Below, piece after piece: positions 27,120 to 63,857 of a DNA stretch of 64,000 bases. The position numbers were made by a program, and so were the translations under genes. The notes beneath the pieces were generated by a model that had not been told where the DNA came from, made no database searches, and was given only the letters and a program-made list of their open reading frames with translations. This DNA is from Podarcis pityusensis (lineage: Eukaryota). How positions within the stretch are numbered: the stretch's first letter is position 1; each line of letters starts with the position of its first letter. Location of the stretch: NCBI GenBank assembly GCA_964106645.2, contig CAXKZF020000028.1. One strand, given 5' to 3'.

Positions 27120-27128
27120 GGAGACCCG

Positions 27129-28376: not shown

Positions 28377-28390
28377 ACAGGACCGACGTC

Positions 28391-29347
28391 ATGCCCTACA
28401 TTCAGATTCCGACGAAGCCGATCTACCGTTCGCCGCGCTGGGACACGTGGGGCGACGCGATCGACGCCGCTGTGCGGCAACTCATCACCGACGTTCCCGC
28501 CCTCACCTCGCAGGTCGGCGAGCTCGAAGCGGGCGGCGGTCCCGCGAACGGGCGGGGCGTGTTCGTGAAACCTGATTCGGCGTTGACGTGGCCGACGCAG
28601 AACCGCGCAGCAGGTGACACGCTGATGTGGTTGCGGGCATGGACAGACACTGTCCTCGCGCCGATCCCGACCGCCGCTGACGGGTACCTTCCCGGTGACC
28701 TCGTGTACCCGGTGTCGTCGTCGGAGACGCTACCGGGCGGGTCCGGGTCGGTGGGGACGTTGTTCTCCGACACCCTGAACGTGACCGCCGTGGCCCCGCT
28801 GGATGGGCGGGTCGGTGACGCCGCGCTCGGTGGTTCCGCGCCGACGTGGCGCGGCGACGTCACCGGCAACGCCTCCGCCGGCCGGGTGCAGGTGCGTCCC
28901 TCTACCGGGTTGGAGATGTACTCCAACGCCTACGCGGCGGTCACGTCACCGATGGTCCCAGCAGCCGCGAACATGCGGTTCACGTTCACCGTCACCGACC
29001 TACCCGAAGGCCACATCGGTGGGGTCGTGGTCCGCGGCACCACCTACAACTCGGCCGACACGGTCCGCATCAACATCAAGTCCGTGTCAGGCGCGCTCGC
29101 GGGGAGCATCATCGACCGCTCGACCGGGTCGACGGTGACGACGCAGCTCGGGTCGGCGCCGATCACGGCGGGCGGGACAACGGTCACGATCTCTGTGGTT
29201 GACGGGGTCGTCGCCGTGAACGTGGGCGGCGCGAACGCGTTGCCGTACACGATCCCTGCCGCCGCGATCCGGCTACCGACGTTCGCGCTGTTCGCGGACT
29301 GGTATTCGACGTTGTCGGTGCGGGACGTGAAAGTGGAGGTGATCTGA
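28391..29347 (+). CDS. Minor tail/receptor-binding protein
   Basis: N-terminus similar to the 27129 gene; beta-rich C-terminus. Confidence 0.6.
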   Translation: MPYIQIPTKPIYRSPRWDTWGDAIDAAVRQLITDVPALTSQVGELEAGGGPANGRGVFVKPDSALTWPTQNRAAGDTLMWLRAWTDTVLAPIPTAADGYLPGDLVYPVSSSETLPGGSGSVGTLFSDTLNVTAVAPLDGRVGDAALGGSAPTWRGDVTGNASAGRVQVRPSTGLEMYSNAYAAVTSPMVPAAANMRFTFTVTDLPEGHIGGVVVRGTTYNSADTVRINIKSVSGALAGSIIDRSTGSTVTTQLGSAPITAGGTTVTISVVDGVVAVNVGGANALPYTIPAAAIRLPTFALFADWYSTLSVRDVKVEVI

Positions 29348-29348
29348 C

Positions 29349-33611: not shown

Positions 33612-33674
33612 ACCCTGAGTTCTCGTCCCTCCCCTGGTTCATTCGACCTTCCCTAAGCTGAACGGAGATGGGTT

Positions 33675-36083: not shown

Positions 36084-36105
36084 ACCCGAGCGAGAGGAAC
36101 CACCA

Positions 36106-36783
36106 GTGTCTGCTCACGCAATGACCGCGCCGAACCGGCCGCAATGTTTCATGTCGCGGTGGCAGCCCGCGTCGCTGGTCACCTCCGACATCATCATCCT
36201 GAAGCTGATCCTCGGGGTGACCGCCCTCGTCCGCGCCGACGACTACGCCCACGGTGTCGCCGACTCCTACGGCGTCCTCGAGTCCGCGTTCCCGCTGTGG
36301 GTGTGGGCGGGTGTGTCCTACCTCGTCGGCGCGTGCATCCTCGCTGGGATCGCGTGGCAACGACACGGGCTGGTGTGGCTCGGCCACGCCGCCGGCGCCG
36401 GACTGTACGGCGTCCTCGCGCTCGCGTCGGCCGCGTCAGCGTTCAGCGAGTGGCCGCCCCGAGCAGGGGCGGCGGCGTCGACGGTGCCGCCGCAACTGTG
36501 GGTGGTCGTCGCGGCCGCGCTGGCCGTGACAGTGGTTGCGGGCGCGTTCACCGCGCGCGGGTATCTGCGGACGGCGTCACGGTTCGCGGCGGCACTCGGT
36601 GTCGGGGCCGTCGCTGTCGGTGTCGTCCTGGCGAACGCGCCCGCTGACGGGTTACGCGGCGCCGGTCCCCTCGCGGTCGTCGCCGCACTGCACACGCTGC
36701 TGATGTTGCGGTCTGGGCCGCGGCCCATGTCCGCCGACGAAGGCGCCGTCGTCGAAGAAACCACCGCGCCGGAGGGTGACTGA
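36106..36783 (+). CDS. Multi-pass membrane protein
   Basis: About six hydrophobic segments; RBS GAGAGGA. Confidence 0.7.
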   Translation: MSAHAMTAPNRPQCFMSRWQPASLVTSDIIILKLILGVTALVRADDYAHGVADSYGVLESAFPLWVWAGVSYLVGACILAGIAWQRHGLVWLGHAAGAGLYGVLALASAASAFSEWPPRAGAAASTVPPQLWVVVAAALAVTVVAGAFTARGYLRTASRFAAALGVGAVAVGVVLANAPADGLRGAGPLAVVAALHTLLMLRSGPRPMSADEGAVVEETTAPEGD

Positions 36784-37247
36784 TGGACATCCCACCTGGC
36801 GCGCTCACCACCGTGTTGTCGTTGCCGTGGGTGATCCAAGTCCTCGCTGTGATCGTCGTGATCGGGATCGTGATGCAGGCTGCGCCGCAAATGTCGGGAC
36901 GGTTCCAATCCACGATCGAGTCGTGGACGAACGGGCGACGCCGCACGAAGACCGCGTCGAAAGACGCTGACGTGTCCGCCCTGTCCAAGCAGGTCGACAA
37001 CATGCAAACCGTCCTCGCGGACACCCGCGCCGAACTGGCGTTGTCCCGCAAGGAACTACGCGACTTCCGCAACGAATCCCGCAAGTACCAGCAGGCGCAC
37101 GACGAAGTCCTCGGCACGCACGCCCTATGGGATCAGGCGATGATCGAGCGGCTCATCGAGCTCGGCGGGACACCGATCCCGAAACCGGCGCTGTGGCCGG
37201 ACCGTGACACCGCCCAGTCGGCGTCGCTGCCGATGACGAACACCTGA
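36783..37247 (+). CDS. Membrane-anchored coiled-coil protein (lysis-associated type)
   Basis: N-terminal TM segment, heptad region, Pro-rich tail. Confidence 0.65.
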   Translation: MDIPPGALTTVLSLPWVIQVLAVIVVIGIVMQAAPQMSGRFQSTIESWTNGRRRTKTASKDADVSALSKQVDNMQTVLADTRAELALSRKELRDFRNESRKYQQAHDEVLGTHALWDQAMIERLIELGGTPIPKPALWPDRDTAQSASLPMTNT

Positions 37248-37314
37248 CCGGAAGGCGGCACCGGTCATCGTCCTGTGCATTTCGTGCCGACCCCGCACAC
37301 TCGGAGGTAACTAG

Positions 37315-38607
37315 ATGGCTACCCGTTTCGACGTGGTCGCGGCAGAGTATTGGCGTAGTCTGCCTGCCCCGATCGCTGCCCTGTCCGCTGACCTCGCTGA
37401 GCTCGAAGCGAGCAGCGTCACCGGCGGCGGGTCCGGGGTCGCGTCATGGACGCCGTACGCGGCGTACACGGCCGGGCAGGTCGTGTCCCAAGCGAACGGC
37501 CTGTACCGCGCGAAAACCGCGTTGACCTCTGGCGCGTCATTCGACCCGGCCTTGTGGGACGCGCTCGTCGTGCCTGGCGCGTCCGGGTCCGCCGTGAACG
37601 TGCAACGAGCGGACGGGTCATGGACGTTGAACAAAGCCGCCGTCGACGCCGCGCACGCCACCGGTAGTTCCGTGCTGTGGTACACCCGCGCCAGCCAGCC
37701 CGCGCCGACCGCCGTGAACGGCCTCGCTGTCGGTGACGTCCTCGACGGCGTCATCAACACCACCGAAACCCTCACCTTCACAACCGTCGGGACCGCGCCG
37801 ACCGCGCAAGACGCGTCAGGCGTCGCGAACGACACCGTCACCCTCACCCGCGCCGCCGGCGTCACCTACACCGTCGACGGCGTCGACCACGCCTACGCGT
37901 CCTTCCCCGGCTCGACGAAGGTCGTGCCGTACACGAAGGGCACCAACACGACCGTCACCGCGAAACCCGAGACGGGGTACACGTTGACAGGTACGACGTC
38001 GTGGGCGTTGCTGTTCTCTAACGTCACCGTCACCACTGGCACCGTCATCACCACGGACACGTTCTCTGGTGGCGCCCGAACCGTCCCCGCCGGGACCAGC
38101 ACCACCACGGACGCCGTCAACGGTGGCACCCCGAAGACCGTCACCATCACCGGGACCGCTGAAATCACCGCGTCGGGCACGTTGAAACTGACCACGGCCG
38201 GCGCGAAATACCGCCTCGACAACACGCTGACGTCCTCGACCGCTGAGGCGCGGATCGTGAAGCTGCCCACGACCGGGCAACTCGACTTCTACCCCGCCGC
38301 GTCCGGGGAAGGAGTCATCAAGATCGCGATCCTGCCGACGGGGTCGTCCCGGATCTGGTTCACGACGAAGACCGGGTCGCAACGCGACTCCGGCACAGAC
38401 ATTTACGTCCAGGCCGGGGACGTCGTGCGCGGCACCAAGAACGGGCCCGCGATCAAGTACGAAGTGTTCCGCGGCGGCAGCTCGGTCGGATCCACAACAA
38501 TGACGGCGACCGCGGCGGAAGACTTCACCCCGACCGCGTACCAGTTCATCGCGACCGCGGCCGGGTCCGCCGCCGAAATCGACGACGTCAAGCTGACGGC
38601 CGGGTGA
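37315..38607 (+). CDS. Tail appendage protein with CBM5/12-like module
   Basis: WTPYAAYTAGQVVSQANGLYRAK; N-terminus similar to the 33675 gene. Confidence 0.7.
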   Translation: MATRFDVVAAEYWRSLPAPIAALSADLAELEASSVTGGGSGVASWTPYAAYTAGQVVSQANGLYRAKTALTSGASFDPALWDALVVPGASGSAVNVQRADGSWTLNKAAVDAAHATGSSVLWYTRASQPAPTAVNGLAVGDVLDGVINTTETLTFTTVGTAPTAQDASGVANDTVTLTRAAGVTYTVDGVDHAYASFPGSTKVVPYTKGTNTTVTAKPETGYTLTGTTSWALLFSNVTVTTGTVITTDTFSGGARTVPAGTSTTTDAVNGGTPKTVTITGTAEITASGTLKLTTAGAKYRLDNTLTSSTAEARIVKLPTTGQLDFYPAASGEGVIKIAILPTGSSRIWFTTKTGSQRDSGTDIYVQAGDVVRGTKNGPAIKYEVFRGGSSVGSTTMTATAAEDFTPTAYQFIATAAGSAAEIDDVKLTAG

Positions 38608-38611
38608 CCTG

Positions 38612-39886
38612 ATGCGCGCAATCTATGACGGGAACGGCGTCTGGGTCGACGTCACCGACGCGTCCCTCACGTTCCAGCCCGGCAGCAGGTACAAACCGCC
38701 GGCGTCGTCTGCGGTGAAGAAGGTCCCGGCGTCGATGACTGGCCCGAACGGGGAGAAGGTCGCGTCGATCGGGCCGTGGGTGTCCGCCGCTGGGGAACCA
38801 TACCGGCTCGCGCAACGCGCCGCCTTGGACCCGGCGTCCTCGACGAAAGCCGCGAAGTTCGTGCAAGGCATCCGCAACGGCGGCTACGGCAACGCCGCCG
38901 ACCTGCAGATGTACCAGTACGGGTACTCCATCTACGAATGCCACCCCGCCTCCACCCGGTACCGGATGAACAAGAACAGCAGCGGCGGGAAAAACGAGAA
39001 CCTGCTGGGCGGGTACGGGTTCTACGACGACCTGCAGACGTCGTATTCGACGTTCGAGAAGCGGGGCGTGTTCATGTCCGTGCCGATGGAGAAAGATTTC
39101 GTCGCCGCGTCCGGCACCGACGGCGGGATCATCATGTGGGACCCCGACGGCGACGAAGAGAGCGACTTCTGGCAGTTCCGTTGGCAGAAACGCACCCCAG
39201 GCCAGCTCGACGGGACCCCGCTGGCGGTAGCGGGCGGCCGCCTTAACCGGATGTCCACGAACACGTCGACGCAGTTCCCGCAATACAACGGGCAATGGTT
39301 CCACGGCCTGTCCGCGTCCCGCCTCGCCGCGGGCCCGTACGTCGTGAAGATCGCCGAGCTGGACCGGGCGATCGGGTCGGACGGGACGATCCCCGCCACG
39401 ATCGACGTGACCCGCCCCGACGGGACAGTGGACACGATCGACGCGCTCGACTCGATCGAACACGTGATGCTGTGCGCGATCGGGACAGGGTTCTCCGCGA
39501 AGTCACCGGCGCTGTCCTACCCCGCGAAGTACAACGACAACTACAACGGTTCCGCGCCCACCCAATCCGGGGGAGTGTCCTACGGGCAGACAACCCGGAT
39601 GCCCGCCGGTATTGACTTCCGGACGTGGAAACCGTCTGGGTGGAGCGGCGACGAAGCGCCCCTGTCGATCATGCGTCTGGTCGGGCGGGCCTGGCAGAAA
39701 CACGGCGTGATGCTCGCCGACATGGGTGGTTCGTTCGGGATCGCCGCGCAAACCAACGACCAAGCCCGCCGTAACGCGATGGTGAACAGGATCCCGAACC
39801 AGTCGAAGCTGCCGGGCGGGTACATCCAGAACTTGACGTTGCTGCCCGTCGAGCAGATCGAGGTGTGCGCGCTGCGCACCGCCTAA
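38612..39886 (+). CDS. Protein with the unknown domain also found in the 23275 and 29349 genes
   Basis: DFWQF..GLSASRL..IEHVM..SYPA..YGQ..RAWQKHGVMLAD. Confidence 0.65.
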   Translation: MRAIYDGNGVWVDVTDASLTFQPGSRYKPPASSAVKKVPASMTGPNGEKVASIGPWVSAAGEPYRLAQRAALDPASSTKAAKFVQGIRNGGYGNAADLQMYQYGYSIYECHPASTRYRMNKNSSGGKNENLLGGYGFYDDLQTSYSTFEKRGVFMSVPMEKDFVAASGTDGGIIMWDPDGDEESDFWQFRWQKRTPGQLDGTPLAVAGGRLNRMSTNTSTQFPQYNGQWFHGLSASRLAAGPYVVKIAELDRAIGSDGTIPATIDVTRPDGTVDTIDALDSIEHVMLCAIGTGFSAKSPALSYPAKYNDNYNGSAPTQSGGVSYGQTTRMPAGIDFRTWKPSGWSGDEAPLSIMRLVGRAWQKHGVMLADMGGSFGIAAQTNDQARRNAMVNRIPNQSKLPGGYIQNLTLLPVEQIEVCALRTA

Positions 39887-41252: not shown

Positions 41253-42047
41253 ATGGACGCCATCGAACGAATCTGCATCGACTACGCGAACGTCCCCCGC
41301 ATCGTCGCCGACCAAGTCACGCAGCTGTTGCCGCCGTCGGTGAACCGCGACGACGTCGAACCCGCCGCGTGGGAGGGCCTGTTCATGGCCGCCCGGACGT
41401 GGCGGCCCGACGGCGGCGCCCCCTTGAAACAGTGGGTGTTCTGGCGCGTGAGGTACGCCGTCATTAGCGAGGTTCGCCGCACGTCACGGTTGACGCGCCC
41501 GAAAATCCGGCAGGCGCAAATCGTGGACGCAGCCGTCGCCGACCTCACAAACAGGATGCGGCGTGCGCCGACCCCTGCGGAGGTCGCCGCTGAGACCGGC
41601 CTCACCGTCGACGAACTCGACGTGTTGGCGTACGCCCGCTATCAGGCGCGCCGGCCCGTCTACATCGACGAGACGGAGGAACCGTTAGCGATCGCGGCGG
41701 CGCCGATGCTGGACCCCGACCGAGCAGACCCCTATCTGCTCGGATGGGTCCGCGCGGCAGTCGCCGCGCTCGATGACCGCAACCGGTACGTCATCACCGA
41801 GCTTTACTGGAACGACGCGTCAACAGGGCAGCTCGGCGACGAGCTCGGCGTGACCGCGTCGCGGGTGTCGCAGATCAAGTCGGAAACGACCACGGCGATC
41901 GGTGACGCGATCTGGTTCAACGTCCGCGGCGATCCGGGCGCCGACGTCGGCACCGGGATCGTCTCGCGGCGACGCGACGCCTACCGAGCCGCCGTCGCTG
42001 ACCAGTACCGGCACATGCAAGAAGACCGGGCCGCGACCGCGGCCTGA
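41253..42047 (+). CDS. Sigma-70 family factor, FliA/WhiG-like
   Basis: Region 2 DDVEPAAWEGLFMAARTWRPDGG, region 3 RAPTPAEVAAETG, region 4 LGVTASRVSQIK. Confidence 0.88.
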   Translation: MDAIERICIDYANVPRIVADQVTQLLPPSVNRDDVEPAAWEGLFMAARTWRPDGGAPLKQWVFWRVRYAVISEVRRTSRLTRPKIRQAQIVDAAVADLTNRMRRAPTPAEVAAETGLTVDELDVLAYARYQARRPVYIDETEEPLAIAAAPMLDPDRADPYLLGWVRAAVAALDDRNRYVITELYWNDASTGQLGDELGVTASRVSQIKSETTTAIGDAIWFNVRGDPGADVGTGIVSRRRDAYRAAVADQYRHMQEDRAATAA

Positions 42048-48675: not shown

Positions 48676-49469
48676 CCAGCTATTTGAAACCCCTTGACGT
48701 CCTGACGGAGGGCCGGACCCTGCCCGCCGGGTATGACCGGTGGGCGATCGAGGCGACCCGCTCGGACGGGACGACCAGGCGCGCATACGTATGGCCGAAC
48801 CCTGGTGTGATCGCAGAGGCACCCGGGCCCATCAACGCCGACAACAGCACTGTCTACCGGGCCGCGGTCGGCGACGGCATCTTCGTCGGTTACACGTGGC
48901 GGGGTATGGCGACTGGTGGCATCCCGGCTTCGACTCTGCTTCTCGTCGCGGTTAAGGACAGCGACGTCCTCGGCGACAGCCCGCACACGGCGCGGGTGCG
49001 GTCGGCGCTCGTCGTGGACCGAATTGACGGGGAACGGTTCGTCCGTGAGCACGGGGCACACCTCGACCTAGCCTGCGCGTACCTGCCCGGCGCGAACCTG
49101 CCCGGCGCACACCTGCCCGGTGCGAACCTGACCGAAGCGAACATGGCCGACGTATACCTGCCCGACGCGAACCTGACCGGCGCGTACGCGCCCAGAGTGT
49201 GCATGGCCGCCGCGGACGTGCGCGGCGCGTACCTGGACGGCGCGTACCTGCCCGACGCTGATGTGCGCGGCGCTGACTTCGCGGACGCGTACGTCACCGG
49301 CGCGGACTTCACGGACGCGGACTTCACGGACGCGGACATGCCCAACGCAGATGTACGCGGCGCGAATTTCACGGGTGCGTGGATGACGCGGGACACCTTC
49401 GACCGCAGCGCCCTCGCCGACCACGGGTGGACGCTCAACGACCGTGGACGCATCGAGCGCGTCGCATGA
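48672..49469 (+). CDS. Pentapeptide repeat protein
   Basis: Tandem A(D/N/Y)Lxx repeats in the C-terminal half. Confidence 0.9.
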   Translation: MTSYLKPLDVLTEGRTLPAGYDRWAIEATRSDGTTRRAYVWPNPGVIAEAPGPINADNSTVYRAAVGDGIFVGYTWRGMATGGIPASTLLLVAVKDSDVLGDSPHTARVRSALVVDRIDGERFVREHGAHLDLACAYLPGANLPGAHLPGANLTEANMADVYLPDANLTGAYAPRVCMAAADVRGAYLDGAYLPDADVRGADFADAYVTGADFTDADFTDADMPNADVRGANFTGAWMTRDTFDRSALADHGWTLNDRGRIERVA

Positions 49470-49536
49470 AACCGCGCCCGCAGCTCACACACCTGCACGA
49501 CGCACGCCGCAACGACACGGCACGGAGGGCCACCAC

Positions 49537-49692
49537 ATGCTGACCATGACCGACTTCTTCTGCGGCGGCGGCGGGTCCTCCACCGGCGCGGCCCAGGTCC
49601 CCGGCGTCGAAGTGAGGGTCGCCGCGAACCACTGGGAACTAGCCGTAGAAGTGCACAACGCCAACCACCAGAACGCGTTACACGTGCAATGA
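49537..49692 (+). pseudogene. N-terminal fragment of a C5-cytosine DNA methyltransferase
   Basis: TDFFCGGGGSSTGA..AANHWELAVEVHNANH (motif I), then a stop at 51 aa. Confidence 0.85.
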
Positions 49693-49931
49693 CCCGCCTC
49701 TGCCCCGCCCACGCCGATCAGCACGTGAAGTGGCTGCACGCCCGGCCAAGCATCCCGCCCTGCCTGGTGCAGATCGGCGGTCTCAGCTCGGCGGCCGTGC
49801 ACCGACAGGCCCTCGAGTCCCGCCGCATGCGCGCCGAGGCTCACGCCACCCTCGTCCGCCGCCAGCTCGCCGACATCGAGCGCTGGTGCGCAGACGGCCG
49901 CGGTTGCGCGACCCCCGACCCCACCGACTGA
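49689..49931 (+). CDS. Hypothetical protein
   Basis: ATGA overlap. Confidence 0.5.
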   Translation: MTRLCPAHADQHVKWLHARPSIPPCLVQIGGLSSAAVHRQALESRRMRAEAHATLVRRQLADIERWCADGRGCATPDPTD

Positions 49932-49942
49932 AGGAGCACCCC

Positions 49943-50308
49943 ATGACCACACCCGCATTCGAGCCCCGCACCGTCACCGACGTCGACGGAGACTCCATCT
50001 ACGTCAACGTCTTCACCCGCTCCGGCGCCATCACGCCGGGCGTCCGGGTCGAACTCGACCAGGCCGTCTACCTCGACAGCACCGGCGCCCGGCGTCTCGG
50101 GCTCGCTCTCCTCGACGCGGCCGACACGCTGCCGCTCGAGGACGGGTGGTACGTGACGTACACCAACGGTGCCCCCACGGGCCCGTGGCGAGTCTACAAG
50201 GGGTGCCCGATCGGGCCCCTGGCAACGTCGATGAGTCACCGGGCACACACGGTCCGCATCGGGCCCCTCACCCCGGCCGACCTCGACCAGCTCGGGTCCT
50301 CGCAGTGA
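49943..50308 (+). CDS. Hypothetical protein
   Basis: RBS GAAGGAG; ARRLGLALLDAAD. Confidence 0.65.
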   Translation: MTTPAFEPRTVTDVDGDSIYVNVFTRSGAITPGVRVELDQAVYLDSTGARRLGLALLDAADTLPLEDGWYVTYTNGAPTGPWRVYKGCPIGPLATSMSHRAHTVRIGPLTPADLDQLGSSQ

Positions 50309-50721
50309 CCGCCCAGCCCGCCGAGTTCGACTGGCCCCGCTTCCACGCCGAGCAGGCCGTCAAGAGCCGCCTCGGGGAGGAGCGGCACACGCCGTGGCGT
50401 TGGATCGACGACGGCCGCGCCACCCAGTACCTCGATCAGGACGTGCTCGCCGCCTACAAGGCCGCGCTCATCGAGGCCTACCGCAAGCTCGAGCAGGTCA
50501 ACGAGAAGTACCGCCGCGACCACGAGCTGGGCGAGAAGTGGAGGCGGGAGCGGGACGCCAAGGCGACCCAGGCGATGCGCTACCGGGAGGGTCTGCTCAT
50601 CGAGCGGTACGACGCCGCCGCGAAGGCTGTCGCCGTCGTGCGGGCCGCTCAGCGGGCCGGTCGGAAGACCGTACGGGTCGACGACGTGCTTGCGGCGCTG
50701 GGGAGCGGTGAGGTCTCGTGA
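50305..50721 (+). CDS. Hypothetical coiled-coil protein
   Basis: GTGA overlaps; GRKTVRVDDV. Confidence 0.6.
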   Translation: MTAQPAEFDWPRFHAEQAVKSRLGEERHTPWRWIDDGRATQYLDQDVLAAYKAALIEAYRKLEQVNEKYRRDHELGEKWRRERDAKATQAMRYREGLLIERYDAAAKAVAVVRAAQRAGRKTVRVDDVLAALGSGEVS

Positions 50722-51374
50722 CCACATCTAGTCTCCGACTCGCGATCGCCGATCCGCCCTACCTGGGGCGCGCCGCCCTCTGGTACGGAGGTAGGGGCCG
50801 AGCCAAGCAGGGCACCGCCGGTCGCGCCGCCGGACGCGGGGATCTTGCCGCGGAGTTTCACCCCAATGCCGCGGAGATCACCCCGCAGCCGTTCGTCGCG
50901 GAGCTGCGCGGAGGCGGATCGACCGCACGTCGAGTCACCGACCCGCTCGCCACCGTCACTGCATCCGGGAACCATCACGGTCTGGTGACCCCCTACTACG
51001 GGGCGTCCACGACAGCACGAAGCAGCGACGAACCGATGGGCACCCTCACGACCCGCGACCGTTACGCACTCATCATGCGCAACAACACTGGCGGCGCCGA
51101 GATGACCACCCCAGCCGGTGAGGTAATGCGGACCGTCACCGCGTCGGGACACCAATCGGTGATCACGCCGGGCGACGTCGACGCGGCAAAGGCGCGCGTG
51201 GACGACTGCTACTTCCGGATGCTTGAGCCCTCGGAGGCTGCCGCAGCGATGGCGTTCCCCCGCGACTACATATGGCGCGGCACCCGCCGTGAGGTCACGA
51301 GGTTGTCAGGCAACGCCGTCACCCCACCCGCCGCCCGCGACATCATCGGCGCCGTCGCAGCCGCGCTCACCTAA
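50718..51374 (+). pseudogene. Chimeric methyltransferase remnant: DPPY-type N-terminus fused to a C5-MTase C-terminus
   Basis: LAIADPPYLG.. then DPLATVTASGNHHGL..FRMLEPSE..GNAVTPP. Confidence 0.7.
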
Positions 51375-55630: not shown

Positions 55631-55903
55631 ATGTGGCACTCATTGACACCGGTCGTCGCGGCAGGCGCCGACCAGAACATGCTGTTCAACAACCCGAAAG
55701 TTCTGTTCGTCATCACCCTCGTCATCGGCGCGATCCTCATCCTCAAGGGGTTCACGATCGCGAAGAGCAAGAACACGACGTTGACGAAGGCGTTAGAGGA
55801 CGGCGGCGTGTCCCTGTTCGGGGCGTTCCTCGTCGTCCTGGGCTTGTCCGTGCCGGTGGTCGTGGGCTTGATGACCGGGGTCGTCAACTGGGTCGGGGCA
55901 TGA
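55631..55903 (+). CDS. Small two-TM protein, pilin/VirB2-position candidate
   Basis: Leader plus two hydrophobic helices with a basic loop; first gene of the module. Confidence 0.6.
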   Translation: MWHSLTPVVAAGADQNMLFNNPKVLFVITLVIGAILILKGFTIAKSKNTTLTKALEDGGVSLFGAFLVVLGLSVPVVVGLMTGVVNWVGA

Positions 55904-55904
55904 C

Positions 55905-56564
55905 ATGACCCGCGTCCACTCAGACAACCCCGTCCGGTACGTGGAGGCGTACTGGCTGGGTGGCCGCGGGTGGCAGTGGTGGTTCACGGCGCGAGCTAAA
56001 GCGTTCGCTTTGTGCCTGTTCCTGTTCGCGACGTTCGTTGGTCCGGCCGCGGCCGGGATCGCCGCGTTGGCGTGGTGGGCGGAACCGAACGTGCTCGTTG
56101 CTGGTGTCGGCGGCGTCGTCGGCGCCGCGGTCGCGTTGGAGTCCGCGGCCACCGTCACCCGTTGGTTGTCGCCGCGGCTGACGCCTGCAACGCCGGTCCG
56201 GTACTGGATTGAGCAGGCCGTGCATGTCGCACGCGCGCCGCGCCCGCCCGCCCCACCCACCCCGCACGTCCTGCCCTCGCCAGCCCGCGCGCACACCCCG
56301 ACTGACCGCACGGTCAATGTCGGTCCCGACTGGAGGAATCATGACTGCACCACTTGCCGAGAAAGTGACGTCGCGGCTCGCGAACGTCGCCGCGTGGATG
56401 CGGCCCGCGCCGCAAGAACTCGCGACCCGCTACATCCTGCAGAACTTGGCCGTCACCCGCTCCGAGACGTGGGCGTATTTCGTGCTGGCCGACGTCGACT
56501 GGCACTCCAAGTCCGACACGGATCGCGGGTCGCTGTACCTGCAGCAGGCGGCGAGGGTCGCTGA
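55905..56564 (+). CDS. TcpE/VirB3-like membrane protein
   Basis: Two TM segments directly upstream of the VirB4-like ATPase; 3' end overlaps it. Confidence 0.55.
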   Translation: MTRVHSDNPVRYVEAYWLGGRGWQWWFTARAKAFALCLFLFATFVGPAAAGIAALAWWAEPNVLVAGVGGVVGAAVALESAATVTRWLSPRLTPATPVRYWIEQAVHVARAPRPPAPPTPHVLPSPARAHTPTDRTVNVGPDWRNHDCTTCRESDVAARERRRVDAARAARTRDPLHPAELGRHPLRDVGVFRAGRRRLALQVRHGSRVAVPAAGGEGR

Positions 56565-58878
56565 GCTCGCCGGTAGCCCGGTCTGGTTGCGGGGGGTGAG
56601 GATGCCGTACCCGGCGGCCGCGTACCGGGCCGCGCTCGAGCAGGAGTACCCGGACGCGGGGCCGATGTTCGCGGACGTCGCGGACCGGGCGGCGGCGTAC
56701 CCGGTCGCGGTGGGCACGTCGTCGGGTGCGGTCGTGTTGGGGGTCCGTGTCGCGGCCCGACCCATCCCGAAGGACATGCTCCGGCACGTCCTCGCTGACG
56801 AGATGACGATCCACCAGATCGAGGACGTCCGCGTCCGATACCGCAGGGTCGCGGCGTCCGTCGCGGGCGGGGGGTGGGAGGCGTCCCCGATCAGTGAGGA
56901 CGGCCTGGATTGGGTGTACGCCGCGGGCCGCGCCCTCGGCCATGACGTCCCTGCCGGTGGTGGCTTGACCCGGTCCAGGGATTGGGCTGCGCCTGACGTG
57001 ACGGTCACCGCGACCCAGGACGACGCCGCGCCGACGGTGCGGGTCGCTGCGACCGTGAACGGGCGGACCACGACCCGGCACACGCACGTGATGCGCGCCG
57101 AAGTCCAGCAGCGCGACGTGGAGGCTCAAGCGAAGCCGTGGCTTGCGTGGGCCGCGGACCAGGAAACCCACGTGGAGTGGGTCGCCCGCCTCGACGTCAT
57201 CCACGGGAAAGAGTTGAACGGCGCCGCGATCGTCAAGGCGCGCCGTAACCGTGACGTCGGGGACCACCTCGCCGAGCACAACACCCACATCAGCGACGCC
57301 TACGTCGAGGGCATCGCCCGCGCCGCTGACGTCGCGTCCGAGACCGGGTCGGCTGACCCTGTCGTCGCGACCCGCGTCCGCGGGCAAGTCCTGTTCGCGG
57401 TGTCCGCGGACACTGAACAAGACACCCTCGACGCCGCGGACATCATCCGTGCCGCCGCCGACGCTGCCGCTGTCAACGGCGGCCCTGGTATCCGGTTCGC
57501 GTCCGCTCCCGCGCAGTGGGCTGACTACCGCAAGTTCATCCCCGGCGAACCGTGGTCGGGGAACTCGGGGCATTCGACGCAGATGCCCGCCCGGATGGTC
57601 GCTGCGGGCGTCCCGAACGCGTCGATGCGGGCCGGGGACACCATCGGTGTCCCCCTCGGCGTGATCCGCGGGTCGAACGAGCTCGCCGTGTTCGACGCGT
57701 TCGGTGGTATCCGCGCCGACCGGGACCGGCCGGGGGTGTGGGCCGTCATCGGTGAGCAGGGCAGCGGGAAAACGACGATGCTGTCACTGGTCGCGTGGTG
57801 GTTGACATTGGCGGGTATCCCCGGCACGTTGTACGACCCGACCGGCGCGATGACACGCATCCTCGCGACTGTCGGTGACGCCGGCCGGGAGTTCCGTCTC
57901 ACGGCCGGTAACCCAGGCTTGTTGTCCCCGCATTTCTTGATCCCGGAACCGGCGCGGGTCAACTACGACACCGACCGCGACTATGCGGGTGCGGTCGCGG
58001 AAGCGGCGGGCGCGAGGATGGACACCGCGTACGACGCGGCGTTGCTGTCGTTGGAGCCGGACACGTTGGCCGCGTACCCCGAAGCCCGGGCCGCGCTGCG
58101 TGAAGCGATCACCGACGTCGGCGGCGTGTACGGCACCCACCCCCGCGACGTCATCACCGCGATCAGGAAGCAAGGCACGGTCGGTGCTGTCCTGGCGAAG
58201 CAGATCGAAGCGCGGGCGATGTTCGCGGACGGCCAGTTGATGTGGCCCCAGCACGGCACGGACGACGAGATCCACGCGACGTTCGCGCGTGACGCCCAAC
58301 TGACGTTGGTGACGACGCCAGGAGCGGTGAAACCACCACCGTCGGGGACACCGCTCGCGCAGTGGAGCGCGGACCAGATCAGGTCCCGCCCGATCCACAT
58401 GTTGGGGGCATTGTTCGCGTCCAGGGCGATCTGGGCGAACCGTGACCGGAAGTTCTACCTCAGCGACGAGGTGTCGTTGCAGGCGGGCGCGGATTCGGCG
58501 TCGTCGGCGTGGATGATGCGGATCGCGCACGACTCCCGCAAGTACGGGTGCTCGGCTGGGTTCGCGATGCAGACGTCGTCGACGGTCGATCTGATCGGGC
58601 AGCGGGCGGCGTCGCTGTTCGCGGCCGCGTTCGTGGGCCGCACGAAACAGGACAACGCGGCGGGCGCGCTCGGGGTCCTCGGCGTCGACGACGGCGAAGG
58701 GTGGGAAGACGTCCCGCCCACGCTGCAGTCGGGGTCGTTCCTGTCCTCGTCGTGGGATGACAAGACCCGCGTCGTCGACGTCGACAAGTCGTGGTGGCCT
58801 CGCGGGTTGGTGGAGGCGACGAACACGACGCCGGTGCGGTCTGCGCCGCGGTTGGCGTCGCCGCTCGGGGTCCGGTGA
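56341..58878 (+). CDS. VirB4-like conjugation ATPase
   Basis: 845 aa; C-terminal Walker A GEQGSGKT, LYDPTG, Walker B FYLSDE, DSRKYG..AMQ, AFVGR; RBS GGAGGA. Confidence 0.85.
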   Translation: MTAPLAEKVTSRLANVAAWMRPAPQELATRYILQNLAVTRSETWAYFVLADVDWHSKSDTDRGSLYLQQAARVAELAGSPVWLRGVRMPYPAAAYRAALEQEYPDAGPMFADVADRAAAYPVAVGTSSGAVVLGVRVAARPIPKDMLRHVLADEMTIHQIEDVRVRYRRVAASVAGGGWEASPISEDGLDWVYAAGRALGHDVPAGGGLTRSRDWAAPDVTVTATQDDAAPTVRVAATVNGRTTTRHTHVMRAEVQQRDVEAQAKPWLAWAADQETHVEWVARLDVIHGKELNGAAIVKARRNRDVGDHLAEHNTHISDAYVEGIARAADVASETGSADPVVATRVRGQVLFAVSADTEQDTLDAADIIRAAADAAAVNGGPGIRFASAPAQWADYRKFIPGEPWSGNSGHSTQMPARMVAAGVPNASMRAGDTIGVPLGVIRGSNELAVFDAFGGIRADRDRPGVWAVIGEQGSGKTTMLSLVAWWLTLAGIPGTLYDPTGAMTRILATVGDAGREFRLTAGNPGLLSPHFLIPEPARVNYDTDRDYAGAVAEAAGARMDTAYDAALLSLEPDTLAAYPEARAALREAITDVGGVYGTHPRDVITAIRKQGTVGAVLAKQIEARAMFADGQLMWPQHGTDDEIHATFARDAQLTLVTTPGAVKPPPSGTPLAQWSADQIRSRPIHMLGALFASRAIWANRDRKFYLSDEVSLQAGADSASSAWMMRIAHDSRKYGCSAGFAMQTSSTVDLIGQRAASLFAAAFVGRTKQDNAAGALGVLGVDDGEGWEDVPPTLQSGSFLSSSWDDKTRVVDVDKSWWPRGLVEATNTTPVRSAPRLASPLGVR

Positions 58879-60707
58879 TGTGGCGGCGCGTCGGCGCCGC
58901 CGCCGTGATGGTTGTCGCTGCTGCCGTCACCGGTAGCGGCGCGGCCGCCGCGGCAGCCGCACCTACTCTGCAGCCCGCCGTGCAGATCGAGTTCTGCCGG
59001 GAACCGCCGCCCGTGCAGATGGGCTCACAGATGCTCGTCACGAAAATCGACCCTGGACCATCGAAGCCGATGAACGGCCCGTACGGCCAGTACGGGTACG
59101 CCGGGTATCAGCAAGTGGTCTACGACCCAGGATGCACGTCCGCGATCATGAACAACCTCAAGCGTTCGCTGCCGCCTGCGTTGCAGGCAGGGGTTGACGT
59201 CGCCCGTCCCGGCGCCGGGTCATCGACCGTCGCCGGTAAGTGGATGACGGGGGCACTGTTCGTGACGGCGTGCACGGTCGGGTTGGTGCGGTTGGCGTTC
59301 GGGGAACACCCGATCTGGCGGGTGTTGGACCCTGCGACCGAGTCGATCCGGGGCATGTTCGGGATCGACTTGTTCTCGATGTGGCTGTGCGTGTCGATCG
59401 TCGCGATGGGTTTGTTCATCGCCGCGAAGCGGGCGTTGGCGTTGACGGCGGCGCTGGAATACGTCGCCCGCGCCGCCGCGATCGTCGCGGTCGCGGTCGG
59501 GTTCCTCGCGTGGACCGGGCAAGCCGGCCCGGCCCTGGACCGGGGGATCGCGGCGGCGTACACGTACGCGACGCAACTACCCGGCGAGGAAGCACCCCCG
59601 GACGCGGGTTCAGCGGTCGGTGACGCGCTCGTGTCGCATGTCATCGCGCCGATCTGGGCGGAACAGCACCTCGGGTTCAACCCGGACACGAACAAGGTGT
59701 ACCAGCCCGCGTTCCAAGCGACGATGGCTTTCGACCGGGACACCGACCGGTCGGTCACCGACCCTGGTGAGCGGGCCGATCGGGTGAAGTACATGCAGGG
59801 CGCGTTCCGGGCCGTCGCGACCCGCTTAAAGCAGGACCACCCGGACACGTACCCGCGGCTCGCGTCGTCGGAAGATTCCGACCGGGGGATGCTCGGGTTC
59901 GTCGCGTTCCTGGGCGCGTTGAACGTCGCTGTCGTCGTCGTGGTCTTGACGGCGGTCGTGGCCGGGTTCCGGCTCGCGGTGCGTGTCTTGACGAACCTGT
60001 CAGCGGCGATCGCGTTGGTCACGATGTACCCGACCTTGCAGGGCGCCGCGTTCGGTTTGGCGCGGTTCCTGGGCCGGTGGGCGTTCGCGTCGGTCGTCGC
60101 GACAGCCGGTTTCGTCGTGTACGTGCAGGCGTTCGTGCAGGGCGTCGCCGCTAACTCGGGTGTCAGTGTCGGTACGAGGGTCACGGCGATGTCGTGCGTG
60201 ACCGCGGTCCTGGTCGCCGCGTTCAAGTTCCGGAAAACGATCCTGGGTTGGTTGCGGATCGGGCGTGACATCGACGCCACCAAGGGCGCCGCAAAGAAGG
60301 CACGTGAACGGTTCGAGAAGCGGTACGGGTATCCCGAACCGGTCTCTCGCGAGCGGGCGGGCGGGGAAAGCACGTTGCGTCCTGATCCGTTGGTTCGTGA
60401 GCAGATCGCGGCCCGGAAAACCGCCGGTGACGCCGCGGTACGTGCCGTCGTGGAACGGCAACGGCAGCAGGCCGCCCAGGCCGTCGAGGTGCGGCGGAGG
60501 GCGACGCAACTCACACCAGCGTCGGCGTCAACGAACCCGCCGTTCCGGGTCGCTGCAGGTGTCGCCGCGGAGTCCGCGGCGATGGCGCGTGCCGCGGCGT
60601 CGCGTCCCGTCAAGCGAGCGTCTGGGACCGTCGCGGTCGCTGCGGCGCGTACAGCCGCGTCCGCCATGAAAGTCCCAGTCCCAGTGAGAGTGAAGGTGAT
60701 GAAGTGA
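58878..60707 (+). CDS. VirB6/TcpH-like polytopic membrane protein
   Basis: Signal-like N-terminus, many TM segments, basic C-tail; directly after the VirB4-like gene. Confidence 0.7.
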   Translation: MWRRVGAAAVMVVAAAVTGSGAAAAAAAPTLQPAVQIEFCREPPPVQMGSQMLVTKIDPGPSKPMNGPYGQYGYAGYQQVVYDPGCTSAIMNNLKRSLPPALQAGVDVARPGAGSSTVAGKWMTGALFVTACTVGLVRLAFGEHPIWRVLDPATESIRGMFGIDLFSMWLCVSIVAMGLFIAAKRALALTAALEYVARAAAIVAVAVGFLAWTGQAGPALDRGIAAAYTYATQLPGEEAPPDAGSAVGDALVSHVIAPIWAEQHLGFNPDTNKVYQPAFQATMAFDRDTDRSVTDPGERADRVKYMQGAFRAVATRLKQDHPDTYPRLASSEDSDRGMLGFVAFLGALNVAVVVVVLTAVVAGFRLAVRVLTNLSAAIALVTMYPTLQGAAFGLARFLGRWAFASVVATAGFVVYVQAFVQGVAANSGVSVGTRVTAMSCVTAVLVAAFKFRKTILGWLRIGRDIDATKGAAKKARERFEKRYGYPEPVSRERAGGESTLRPDPLVREQIAARKTAGDAAVRAVVERQRQQAAQAVEVRRRATQLTPASASTNPPFRVAAGVAAESAAMARAAASRPVKRASGTVAVAAARTAASAMKVPVPVRVKVMK

Positions 60708-61153
60708 TGGGCCGGTTCTTGTTGCGTTCAGTCCGGCGGCTCGTCGCCGCGGCCGTCGTGGTTGTCGCGGTCGGTGCGGCGGTGACGGTAACGGCGGTGT
60801 CGTGGTTGTCGTCGTCGCTGACCCCTGACCGCGCCGCCACAGCACCCGCTACGGCGGCGGCGGCGGTCGAGGGTGGGTGCGCTGCAGCTGCTGCCCGGTT
60901 CGCGGACGTCGTCGCCGGCCACGGCCCAGGCTGGGTGGCGGAGGCGACACCGTTGGTGACGTCACGGCTCGCGACGGTCCTACCGTCCGTCGGCGCCGCC
61001 GACCTGCCTTCGGGGCGGGTCGGTGTCGTCTCGACCGTCGCGGAACCTGCGGTGTGTGACGCGACCGTCACGATCGGGGGTGCGCCGTGGCGGATCGAGT
61101 TGGAAGCGGCGTCCGGTGCGTGGTTGGTGTCGGCGTGGGATGACGGGTCGTGA
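60707..61153 (+). CDS. Bitopic membrane protein (VirB8/TcpC-position candidate)
   Basis: One TM segment plus a small alpha/beta domain ending WLVSAW. Confidence 0.5.
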   Translation: MGRFLLRSVRRLVAAAVVVVAVGAAVTVTAVSWLSSSLTPDRAATAPATAAAAVEGGCAAAAARFADVVAGHGPGWVAEATPLVTSRLATVLPSVGAADLPSGRVGVVSTVAEPAVCDATVTIGGAPWRIELEAASGAWLVSAWDDGS

Positions 61154-62145
61154 AAGCGGCACTATCAGCCGTCGCGGGTGGCCTCGTCGTCGCGGGTGTC
61201 TTGTCGGTGACGGCGACGTCACCGCCGTCGGACGCCGTCACCCTCACCGGCGACGCCGCACCAGCGGCCGCGACGGTCGGCGCGCCACCGACCGTCGCGG
61301 GGTGCGTGACCACGGCAGGCGGGGAGCTCGCCGGGTTGAGCGTGGAGCAGCGCGGCATCGCGAAAGTCGGTGTTGACGCCGCGAACCGGGCGAAGCTCGG
61401 GGAACCCGCCGCCCGGATCATCGTCGCGGCAGGGATCGTCGAGTCTGGGTTGCGGAACCTGTCGCACGGGGACCGTGACTCCCTCGGGTGGTTGCAGCAG
61501 CGCCCGTCGCAAGGGTGGAAGCATGCGACGGACCCGGCCCGCGCCGCGGACGACTTCTTGGCTGCGTTGAAGCGTGTCCCCGGCTGGGCGTCGATGGAGC
61601 CGGGGGACGCCGCGCAAGCCGTCCAACGTTCCGGGTTCCCCGACCGGTACACGCAGGTGATGCCGCGGGCCACGCAGATCGTCGCCGGGATCACCGGGCA
61701 AGGTTGCGCCGACCCGGCCCCGTCCGCGGGGCGGGTGTCGGGTCGGGCGGGGACCGTGTTGGCGTGGGCGCGCGGTCAAGTCGGGAAGGCGTACGTGATG
61801 GGAGCGAACGGCCCGAACGCGTGGGACTGTTCGTCGTTCTCCCGGACCGCGATGCAACAGGCGGGCGTGACCGGGATGCCACGGACCGCGCAAGCGCAAC
61901 GGGATTGGTGCGCGTCCGGGCGGTGCAAACGCATCCCTGACGGGCAGGAGCGACCTGGGGACCTCGTGTTCTGGGATTCCTACCTCGGGCCGTCCCAGGT
62001 CGGGCACGTCGCGATCATCCGTGACCCCGCGGCCCGCGGCACCACCGACGCTCGCGGGTCGAAACAGGGCGTCATCAACGGCACCTACCCGCTGGCCGCG
62101 TCCAAACACATTTTCGAGGTGTGGCGCCCGAATGGGCTCACCTAA
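61150..62145 (+). CDS. Exported peptidoglycan hydrolase: lysozyme-like domain plus NlpC/P60 (VirB1/TcpG role)
   Basis: VESGLRNL..GDRDSLG..QQRPSQGW..AQAVQRS; QVGKAYVMG..WDCSSF..PGDLVFW..HVAI. Confidence 0.9.
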   Translation: MKAALSAVAGGLVVAGVLSVTATSPPSDAVTLTGDAAPAAATVGAPPTVAGCVTTAGGELAGLSVEQRGIAKVGVDAANRAKLGEPAARIIVAAGIVESGLRNLSHGDRDSLGWLQQRPSQGWKHATDPARAADDFLAALKRVPGWASMEPGDAAQAVQRSGFPDRYTQVMPRATQIVAGITGQGCADPAPSAGRVSGRAGTVLAWARGQVGKAYVMGANGPNAWDCSSFSRTAMQQAGVTGMPRTAQAQRDWCASGRCKRIPDGQERPGDLVFWDSYLGPSQVGHVAIIRDPAARGTTDARGSKQGVINGTYPLAASKHIFEVWRPNGLT

Positions 62146-62167
62146 CAACCAGATTGGAGGCACATGT

Positions 62168-62860
62168 ATGACGATCACCCGCTACCCTGACCGCATGTCA
62201 CTGGTGAACGGTTGGGACGAGGTGTCCGCCGCGGCGGTACACGCGACGGTCGACGCGGCCACGTTGGCGTGGCACCCGAACTTGGGGGCCGACATCCACT
62301 ACGCGTTCGTCCACGTCACCCACGGATGGATTGAGCCGTGGTGGGAAGCGAACCTCGGTTACATCACCGACGCTGCTCACGCGCAGGTCGGTGGGCAACG
62401 ACACGTCACGGATTGGGCGTGCTTTGCGTCGTTGCAGGCCGCGCTGTGCATGGGGTTCCTGCCCGACCCGCCCGTCGACCTCATCGTCGGTCTCGCGGTC
62501 CCGGCGGCGAAGCACATGAACGCCACCGAGTACCCGCCCGTCACCGTCCCTGACCCGGTACAGGTTGAGCCCGCCGCGCGTGATGACGCCCGCGATGAGG
62601 CGGTGTATTGGGCGACGGTCGATGACCGCGCCAGCCGGATCCAGGTCGGTGAAACCGTCATGGCCCTCACCGATGTCACGGAAGGTTGGTTGTTCCCGCG
62701 GAGGGTCATTCAGGCTGGCGCTTCGGTGACGGTCACTGACGCGCCGCGCCGCGGTGACATCACTATTAGGTGCGGCGAAGACATTGCCACCGTCTCGCGG
62801 CGTCGTGTCGCCGCGTGGATGGTCGCGGCTCACGAAGCGGTGACGTCATGGGCGTATTGA
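62168..62860 (+). CDS. Hypothetical protein
   Basis: RBS GGAGG; 230 aa. Confidence 0.65.
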   Translation: MTITRYPDRMSLVNGWDEVSAAAVHATVDAATLAWHPNLGADIHYAFVHVTHGWIEPWWEANLGYITDAAHAQVGGQRHVTDWACFASLQAALCMGFLPDPPVDLIVGLAVPAAKHMNATEYPPVTVPDPVQVEPAARDDARDEAVYWATVDDRASRIQVGETVMALTDVTEGWLFPRRVIQAGASVTVTDAPRRGDITIRCGEDIATVSRRRVAAWMVAAHEAVTSWAY

Positions 62861-63771
62861 CAACACCCCGTGTCGTGGCGTTGACCGCCGCCCCCCTTAT
62901 CGGGTGGGCGGCGGTTTCTTTTATCCCCGCTGACCCTTTCTGGTGGCGCGCCGGCTTTCTGCTGTTGATGCCGTTCGTGGCGCTGGTCGGGGTCGCGGCG
63001 ACAAGCGGGCGGTATTCGGTCGCGGCTATTGCTGGGTTCGTGTTGTCGGGCGCGGCGGCCGCGGCGTGGTGGCCGTTCACGCCGGCGCCGTCTTCGACCA
63101 CGGTCGGGTGGGTGCTCGTTGTCGCGGCCGTGTTGTGGTGGGGTCCGTTCGTCCCGGACGCTGCGGCCGCTGCTCGGGAGTGGCGGATCGACCGGTACGA
63201 CGACAACTTCGACGACAGCGACCTCGTCTACGACGGCGACGACCCCGACAATGGTGACCGGCCGCACGACGTCGCCGCCGGCGGCGGTGACCGGGCGTGG
63301 TCGTTGACGGTGCGGGAGGCGCCACCCGACGGGATAGAAATCGGCGGCGGGGACGACGCGTTCGACTACGAACCCGACCCGCCCGTGATCCGGACCCCAC
63401 CGCCAGGGTGGGAACCGCGGTCACGAACCGTCGCCGGAGCACCCCTGTTCGTCGACCTGGTCACCGGCGACGACGACACGGGCGGCGACAACCCTGGGGT
63501 TTGGGAACAGCTCACCGAGGTTTGGCCGGGTGACGCGAAAGCGTTGCACCTAGATGAGGTCGCCGCGATCCTCGACGTCCCCGAAGGTGACGTCCGGGAC
63601 GTCCTCACCGACGCTGGCGTGCCCGTGACTGCGAGGGTCGGGAAGCGCCGGAACGGGCAGTCCATCAGCCGTGCAGGGGTACGCCGTAGCGACCTCGACG
63701 GTGCCGCGGCAGCCCCTTCTGGCGGTTCACAACACGACCCGCCGCTCACAACACCATCCACAACGGCCTGA
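62848..63771 (+). CDS. Four-TM membrane protein with acidic linker and C-terminal wHTH-like domain
   Basis: LHLDEVAAIL..VRDVLTDAGVPV..RAGVRRSDL. Confidence 0.65.
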   Translation: MGVLTTPRVVALTAAPLIGWAAVSFIPADPFWWRAGFLLLMPFVALVGVAATSGRYSVAAIAGFVLSGAAAAAWWPFTPAPSSTTVGWVLVVAAVLWWGPFVPDAAAAAREWRIDRYDDNFDDSDLVYDGDDPDNGDRPHDVAAGGGDRAWSLTVREAPPDGIEIGGGDDAFDYEPDPPVIRTPPPGWEPRSRTVAGAPLFVDLVTGDDDTGGDNPGVWEQLTEVWPGDAKALHLDEVAAILDVPEGDVRDVLTDAGVPVTARVGKRRNGQSISRAGVRRSDLDGAAAAPSGGSQHDPPLTTPSTTA

Positions 63772-63857
63772 CCTGCGCTTTCACAACGAAACAGGCCGTT
63801 TCACAACGCCACCGCCGCAGACACTGTTCCGTGCTCACGGCGGTGGTCGTTCACAAC
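63726..63857 (+). repeat. Six direct 8-bp TTCACAAC-type repeats
   Basis: Copies at 63726, 63745 (CTCACAAC), 63757 (TCCACAAC), 63780, 63800, 63850. Confidence 0.85.

Follow-up and report, generated by a model that had tools for sequence, protein, structure and literature searches.

Why does a temperate phage carry a run of conjugation-like genes that closes with a membrane protein bearing a putative DNA-binding domain and a cluster of short direct repeats, and could these parts move double-stranded DNA without a relaxase? A first-pass annotation had likened the protein to a Streptomyces TraB translocase without its ATPase, and proposed that it tethers phage DNA, through the repeats, to a VirB4-type machine.

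The phage and its conjugation-like module

The window (the whole 64,000-nucleotide stretch that we analyzed) is bases 1-64000 of a 66,649-bp contig from a 1.5 Gb assembly, and its G+C content is about 68%. It contains the genes that mark a temperate tailed phage (terminase, portal, capsid, tail, endolysin, and tyrosine integrase), as well as RecET and HU genes. The nearest relatives of the phage's cell-wall hydrolase (61%) are in genomes labelled Dermatophilus, so its host probably belongs to the Dermatophilus family. The 2.6 kb past the window encode a YdjM-type membrane protein, an RNA-ligase-like protein, and small phage genes. Elsewhere in the window, we noticed a Tad3-type anti-Thoeris protein (1560-2060, + strand; PF25185, E = 4e-31); a phage-encoded sigma-70-family factor (41253-42047, + strand), with lysis genes on one side and the integrase on the other; an unusually long run of tail or receptor-binding genes (23275-39886; beta-helix, GDSL lipase, CBM5/12); and a DNA-methylase-like gene (49444-51374) that is apparently split, with an N-terminal motif near 49500, the C-terminal part at 50718-51374, and other ORFs between them.

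The conjugation-like module extends from 55631 to 62860 and is closed by the gene for the membrane protein, which we call P0001. The genes that precede it are:

55631-55903, + strand: small two-helix membrane protein, the first gene of the module; found in the same position in L004, L134, L171, and L212; no family match
55905-56564, + strand: membrane protein before the ATPase, in a TcpE/VirB3-like position (a positional label); no family match
56341-58878, + strand: VirB4-like ATPase with Walker A motif GEQGSGKT; AAA_10 E = 0.0013, below the cut-off
58791-60707, + strand: polytopic membrane protein, VirB6/TcpH-like by its position and a weak match to NF046089 (E = 0.01)
60704-61153, + strand: single-helix membrane protein with a conserved Cys pair, in what is probably the VirB8 position
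61150-62145, + strand: cell-wall hydrolase with an NlpC/P60 domain (PF00877, E = 2e-10)
62168-62860, + strand: gene X, which ends the channel module and overlaps the P0001 gene at its start

The labels TcpE, TcpH, VirB3, VirB8, and MPF_FA are presumptive and in part positional. A conjugative T4SS should include a VirB4 ATPase; the direct match here is weak, and relatives found with a profile of the VirB4-like protein pass the AAA_10 cut-off (E = 3e-23). For the VirB6/TcpH-like protein, the match of the L134 relative to NF046089 is also weak (E = 1e-4). The protein in the VirB8 position had no structure match, and gene X had tblastn matches in three (L212, L004, and L005) of 13 loci. The module has a VirB4-like ATPase, a polytopic membrane protein, and a wall hydrolase in common with the MPF_FA-type T4SS that use TcpA (pCW3 and the Tn916 family), but the window yielded neither a coupling ATPase nor a relaxase, and most of the family labels in the module are weak or positional.

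The proposal of relaxase-free coupling would suffer if a relaxase lay within or just beyond the window, and none turned up. We scanned 87 window ORFs (those of 126 that passed a codon filter and had at least 150 amino acids, two of them taken from a later start), the ORFs scanned in L002, and 58 ORFs of a second prophage (in genome G007, described below), and found no relaxase, coupling protein (VirD4/TcpA), or FtsK. Similarly, no relaxase or coupling ATPase was found in the 2.6 kb past the window. The two ends of the contig do not overlap, so a further gene may exist outside it. Also, the accessible part of PMC12857230 describes one system in which a tyrosine recombinase can act as a relaxase, and the window phage may have an unrecognised relaxase or a dual-use integrase. 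The gene set of an AICE is incomplete in the window, with an integrase present and no RepSA or Tra ATPase.

P0001 and the repeats at the end of its gene

The last gene of the module and its surroundings have these features:

62848-63771, + strand: ATPase-less Tra-type protein P0001 (307 amino acids), with four hydrophobic segments, an acidic linker, and, at the C-terminus, a winged helix-turn-helix (wHTH) domain
62872-63153, + strand: predicted membrane anchor, amino acids 9-102, from hydropathy only
63184-63492, + strand: acidic, Pro-rich linker, which occupies the place of the FtsK ATPase of fused relatives
63496-63711, + strand: predicted winged-helix domain (helix-strand-helix-helix-hairpin-helix; AlphaFold2 pLDDT 82, and fold matches)
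63726-63857, + strand: clt-like array of six co-oriented TCACAAC-type repeats that straddle the stop codon
63769-63776, + strand: TGACCTGC motif, whose TGA is the stop codon of the P0001 gene

The architecture in the first-pass annotation was borne out. A Kyte-Doolittle scan predicts four hydrophobic segments (amino acids 9-27, 35-53, 57-75, and 84-102), where four transmembrane helices had been claimed; the linker described as long and acidic (amino acids 113-215) has 27 D/E and 8 K/R; and the motif GVPV..RAGVRRSDL is present. P0001 has no match to PF01580 (FtsK/SpoIIIE ATPase), and its 307 amino acids leave no room for one. The C-terminal domain had been called HTH-like, and this agrees with the AlphaFold2 model, which was built from an 8-row alignment of the domain: its fold matches are wHTH proteins, at modest scores (best Z of 6.0, and no Foldseek E below 0.001). 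This modest-scoring list does not include FtsK-gamma or other structures specific to Tra. In a viral structure library, the model matched gp26 of Streptomyces phage VWB (TM of 0.64). No Pfam, PHROG, or NCBIfam model scores above threshold for the wHTH family, and a sequence search of the PDB found nothing significant for the domain either. A word-based search with all of P0001 gave no matches, and the ESM Atlas gave nothing usable.

Most of the matching folds belong to regulators, and the array separates the module from the genes that follow. P0001 might then be a membrane-bound transcription regulator, with the array as its operator, that controls the downstream genes upon a membrane signal. 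We consider this very unlikely. The downstream genes vary among loci, FtsK-type Tra genes have this domain and array too (see below), and we found no sigma-70-type promoter in the interval, although the sigma-70 model is weak for this host group.

The repeats begin at 63726, 63745, 63757, 63780, 63800, and 63850 on the + strand, so that three lie within the end of the gene and three past the stop codon. Their number, position, and shared orientation are as first described, but the unit is not: the shared core is 7 bp rather than 8 (TCACAAC in five repeats and CCACAAC in one), and the 8-mer TTCACAAC is exact in only four of the six. Across the window, CACAAC is not enriched (30 matches versus 39.9 expected), and 6 of the 30 matches are within 130 bp. 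We also compared 6-mers with at least three A/T and at least three different letters across the 66,649-bp contig; the densest cluster of any of them is TCACAA, with five copies in 140 bp, and none of 60 dinucleotide shuffles reached five. Short direct repeats at the 3' end of a tra gene are what characterize clt, and the window array has this form. For example, the clt of pWTY27 begins 16 bp inside tra and has four 7-bp repeats (accessible part of PMC3583192), and its anatomy is like that of the window array. A search of viral contigs for a triple-repeat pattern found 122 stretches, none with the domain or the module except for one 19-bit match in L078.

Relatives with an FtsK motor

Using the last 82-residue domain of P0001 as the query, phmmer found 12 matches, of which 8 are clear relatives: five proteins of 245-350 amino acids with a membrane region, linker, and domain; two fragments; and P0009. 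(P0005 and P0008 were rejected as unrelated after reading the sequences, and P0013 was rejected on its 25% identity over 36 residues. P0004, with 906 amino acids, has many tandem copies of a domain that resembles this wHTH.) P0009 has 503 amino acids and comprises a membrane region, FtsK_SpoIIIE (E = 3e-11), and a wHTH of the P0001 type. Within the first 125 amino acids, the fused P0009 and the ATPase-less P0002 are 46% identical over 109 amino acids. Because these N-termini are shared, it appears that the motor was lost from between two retained ends; the comparison, which has no rooted tree, points to loss rather than gain.

More broadly, the wHTH profile A2 matched 3 of 301 family-level genomes, and two of these matches are real. 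(Matches in G296, G489, G580, and G556 were rejected as unrelated after reading.) In genome G137, an integrative element (integrase, DUF3987, and FtsK) encodes a 673-amino-acid FtsK-type Tra that ends in the wHTH, with a profile-profile probability of 98.6%, and after this domain come TGACCTGC and short repeats. A profile of the FtsK-fused members only gave 25.7 bits for P0002 and 13.7 bits for P0001.

A wider profile of 9 rows had matches in 64 of 201 Streptomyces genomes and in 11 of 401 at the order level. We examined 51 loci, comprising the best 30 Streptomyces matches, all 14 order-level matches, and 7 seed loci, which are not independent. FtsK matched in the same frame at 33 of these loci, and at the other 18 (two of which have long frames) it did not. 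With a strict test for an array at the gene end (at least four exact 6-mers, P < 0.05), 24 of the 33 FtsK-fused loci and 8 of the 18 ATPase-less loci have one, while just 3 and 4, respectively, of the upstream stretches used as controls have four copies. The 10 ATPase-less loci that fail the strict test count against a role in transfer. The TGACCTGC motif, which has only three occurrences in the contig and was not reported in the first-pass annotation, recurs within or next to the array in most of the ATPase-less relatives, and lies in this region in 14 of 18 ATPase-less versus 7 of 33 FtsK-fused loci. It is retained among arrays with differing repeats, often as the stop codon (the window; L129, L166, L170, L171, and L240-L247), and a second, shared factor may act at it.

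Homologues had been expected to have adjacent repeats, and they do, at L004/L005, in G007, in phages VWB and Kromp, and at the ends of fused tra genes. It had also been suggested that the repeats and the wHTH would covary. The repeat types do sort with the type of wHTH, but this sorting was judged by eye, and descent confounds it. TCACAAC is common to the window and L005, whose wHTH domains are 33% identical; elsewhere, the repeats are GCGCTAC in the G007 prophage, TCTCCC or TCTACC in Streptomyces phages, and GCTAGC types after fused Tra.

How close is this to TraB? In Streptomyces TraB, helix 3 of the wHTH binds the 8-bp clt repeats and double-stranded DNA is moved (accessible parts of PMC3583192 and PMC12857230). 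Like the TraB/clt systems of pSVH1, pIJ101, pJV1, pWTY27, and AICEs, P0001 has a membrane anchor and a C-terminal wHTH, and the window has short co-oriented repeats at the gene end and no recognised relaxase. Unlike these systems, P0001 has no FtsK motor, and the window system is on a virion-encoding phage and paired with a VirB4-type module. The wHTH of P0001 has no sequence match to the C-termini of the Tra proteins of pIJ101, pJV1, pSG5, and pWTY27 (hhalign probability of at most 2.5%), which places it, by sequence, in a Tra-type subfamily apart from theirs. It is the uncharacterised FtsK-type Tra of integrative elements that end in this type of wHTH. Because a fused protein has its membrane region as well as its wHTH in common with ATPase-less relatives, the view of P0001 as a Tra/TraB-type translocase without the FtsK motor is largely supported; what the first-pass annotation judged by eye stands for FtsK-type Tra (33 of 51 loci), but not for the four characterised ones.

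P0001 might also work as an adaptor that co-assembles with a full-length Tra or FtsK of a co-resident element or of the host, and either makes it specific for the phage (mobilisation in trans) or acts as its poison. The conserved membrane region of P0009 and P0002 would fit such co-assembly, as would the self-interaction of TraB through both termini (accessible part of PMC4447253); furthermore, fused relatives are common in the same taxa, and the Streptomyces versions have no adjoining ATPase. On the other hand, the window phage and the G007 prophage retain the whole channel module with its own ATPase, and in G007 no FtsK-family gene lies close to the prophage, with only two in the rest of the genome. 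Overall, we think that such hijacking is improbable.

Other carriers and the proposed role in DNA transfer

Two metagenomic contigs, L004 and L005, have the same gene order as the window, a 246-amino-acid membrane-wHTH protein, and five TCACAAC repeats; L006 has the 3' part of such a locus, and the array is conserved in all three. Their VirB4-like proteins (L004:999-3542 and L005:845-3388) have a non-canonical Walker A motif, which counts against a role in transfer. Contigs with this protein are often 8.3-8.9 kb, which is about the size of the module, and L004 stops at its final repeat. Possibly, the module is a cassette whose flanks vary.

The G007 prophage (contig C1; portal, tail tube, RecT, and helicase) has the module in the same early-region position, with a divergent wHTH and six GCGCTAC repeats. 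Its gene order is the same as in L004 and L005, yet the ATPases are only about 30% identical. (Just before the portal gene of this prophage, a 695-amino-acid gene at L177:13399-15486 has a LAGLIDADG domain, which is probably an intein in the terminase.)

The VirB4-like ATPase profile matched 39 of 301 family-level genomes, and none of 20 loci around other VirB4 relatives has the wHTH gene. Five chromosomal modules (L133, L134, L210, L211, and L212, the last three being among the 20 loci) end before the wHTH gene and have no array. Both results count against a role in transfer. These bare modules have housekeeping neighbours, with no phage, relaxase, or coupling gene beside them, and are possibly domesticated. 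Among more distant copies of the module, all eight that we followed have FtsK, RepSA, and an integrase 11-17 kb downstream, so the module seems to serve DNA transfer and to have an FtsK-type partner already, in likeness to the FtsK-like TcpA of MPF_FA T4SS. The two of these FtsK proteins that we read end without a wHTH. The idea that the module is normally paired with TrwC or VirD4 was rejected, as neither family is near it in five genomes; TrwC and TraG-D_C are absent or distant from the module in the genomes tested. Judging by this linkage, the module's non-phage relatives look like AICE-T4SS hybrids (VirB4-type module with FtsK, RepSA, and integrase at L230-L237 with L217-L229, in G215, G117, G128, G252, G253, G265, and G267). 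Scans of viral contigs with the domain, A3, and P0009 gave no matches, and a scan with A4 gave two distant NlpC/P60 matches and no match to the module.

The whole locus might instead be a relic: a piece captured from an integrative element, which has stopped moving DNA. The motor is gone, Walker A is non-canonical in L004 and L005, and the chromosomal copies of the module are truncated. We consider decay of this kind quite unlikely: the frames are open and codon-biased, the gene order is fixed in phages with such divergent ATPases, and the repeat persists at 33% domain identity but differs where the domain has changed.

Outside of VirB4-type modules, too, the ATPase-less protein is found. VWB gp26, Kromp gp85, and a protein of the small rolling-circle plasmid pNKL share the build of P0001 and have TGACCTGC (on the reverse strand in pNKL), with array units of TCTCCC, TCTACC, and CTACC in VWB, Kromp, and pNKL. 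In VWB and Kromp, the wHTH gene comes directly after membrane genes that resemble spd genes (by eye), with no ATPase among the neighbours, which also counts against the proposed transfer. In another prophage (L238), a DUF2637 gene is three genes upstream of the wHTH gene, and pNKL has no FtsK match. SpdB2 homologues have been noted on actinophages (accessible part of PMC4447253), and that part of the account makes no mention of a wHTH gene or repeat array on phages. VWB and Kromp thus carry such spreading genes with the ATPase-less wHTH gene and array directly after, whereas the window phage has a VirB4 module instead. The link that the first-pass annotation drew to the VirB4 machine in particular does not hold for these Streptomyces phages.

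Could P0001 be a membrane-bound centromere-binding protein that tethers extrachromosomal phage DNA for partition or stabilisation, with no export role, while the channel module does something else or is linked by history? The occurrence of the protein without a VirB4 module in VWB, Kromp, and pNKL, and of the module without the wHTH protein in the five chromosomal copies, fits this idea. So does SpdA2 of pIJ101, whose binding site lies within its own gene and which influences stability but not transfer (accessible part of PMC4170104). However, P0001 appears to descend from Tra translocases, its repeats are co-oriented and non-palindromic as in clt, and wherever the neighbours are readable its gene is the last of a membrane or transfer cluster (the VirB4 module or SpdB2/DUF2637-like genes). 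We therefore regard partition as rather unlikely, but worth keeping in mind.

The explanation that we prefer, and to which we give about an even chance, is that P0001 is a membrane tether or adaptor that presents double-stranded phage DNA to a transfer channel without a relaxase. The N-terminal helices would hold P0001 in the membrane, and the wHTH would bind the repeat array beside its own gene. Because of the membrane helices and this presumed binding, circular double-stranded phage DNA would be held at the membrane. Transcribed together with P0001, the VirB4-type module (ATPase, membrane proteins, and wall hydrolase) may build a junction to a neighbouring cell or compartment, and the tethered DNA would move through it un-nicked, powered by the VirB4-like ATPase or by a borrowed FtsK-type motor. 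Direct action of VirB4 ATPases in moving substrates has not been demonstrated, according to the accessible part of PMC12857230, which counts against this explanation. A complex prediction for amino acids 420-845 of the VirB4-like protein with amino acids 105-295 of P0001 gave no answer (score of 0.00) and favours neither side.

The identity of the domain, the loss of the motor, the linkage of gene, array, and module, and the lack of a recognisable relaxase or coupling ATPase are what the computations show, and suggest that some phages may pass DNA from cell to cell without particles. The arrangement is real, conserved, built from known parts, and apparently undescribed. In the literature that we searched (including the accessible parts of PMC3218068 and PMC3429521), whose coverage leaves out most subscription journals, we found no description of an ATPase-less Tra with clt-like repeats or of a phage with a relaxase-free VirB4 module. 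Phage-ICE tandems (PMC13651849) likewise combine phage DNA with conjugation genes, but use a complete adjacent ICE, and tyroviruses (PMC9703825) have T4SS and replication-relaxation genes but, unlike the window phage, keep a relaxase-family gene. As far as the accessible parts of these two papers go, what differs here is that the module is inside the early region of two phages, with no adjacent ICE and no recognised relaxase-family gene.

If our explanation is correct, the VirB4 ATPase or a borrowed motor would be a DNA translocase, and TraB/clt conjugation of double-stranded DNA and T4SS/relaxase conjugation of single-stranded DNA, which are treated as separate in the accessible parts of the literature, would be joined in one phage. 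With this system, one could ask directly whether DNA can be moved by a VirB4-type machine that has no coupling ATPase or relaxase, and what role the Spd-like genes play in Streptomyces phages; for such work, VWB, Kromp, and pNKL are available in culture and harmless. Elements of this kind go unnoticed when a conjugation scan demands a relaxase. More tentatively, a class of actinobacterial temperate phages might spread in two ways, as virions and by relaxase-free transfer of double-stranded DNA, with a motor-less derivative of TraB as a stand-alone specificity adaptor that feeds a VirB4- or Spd-type channel.
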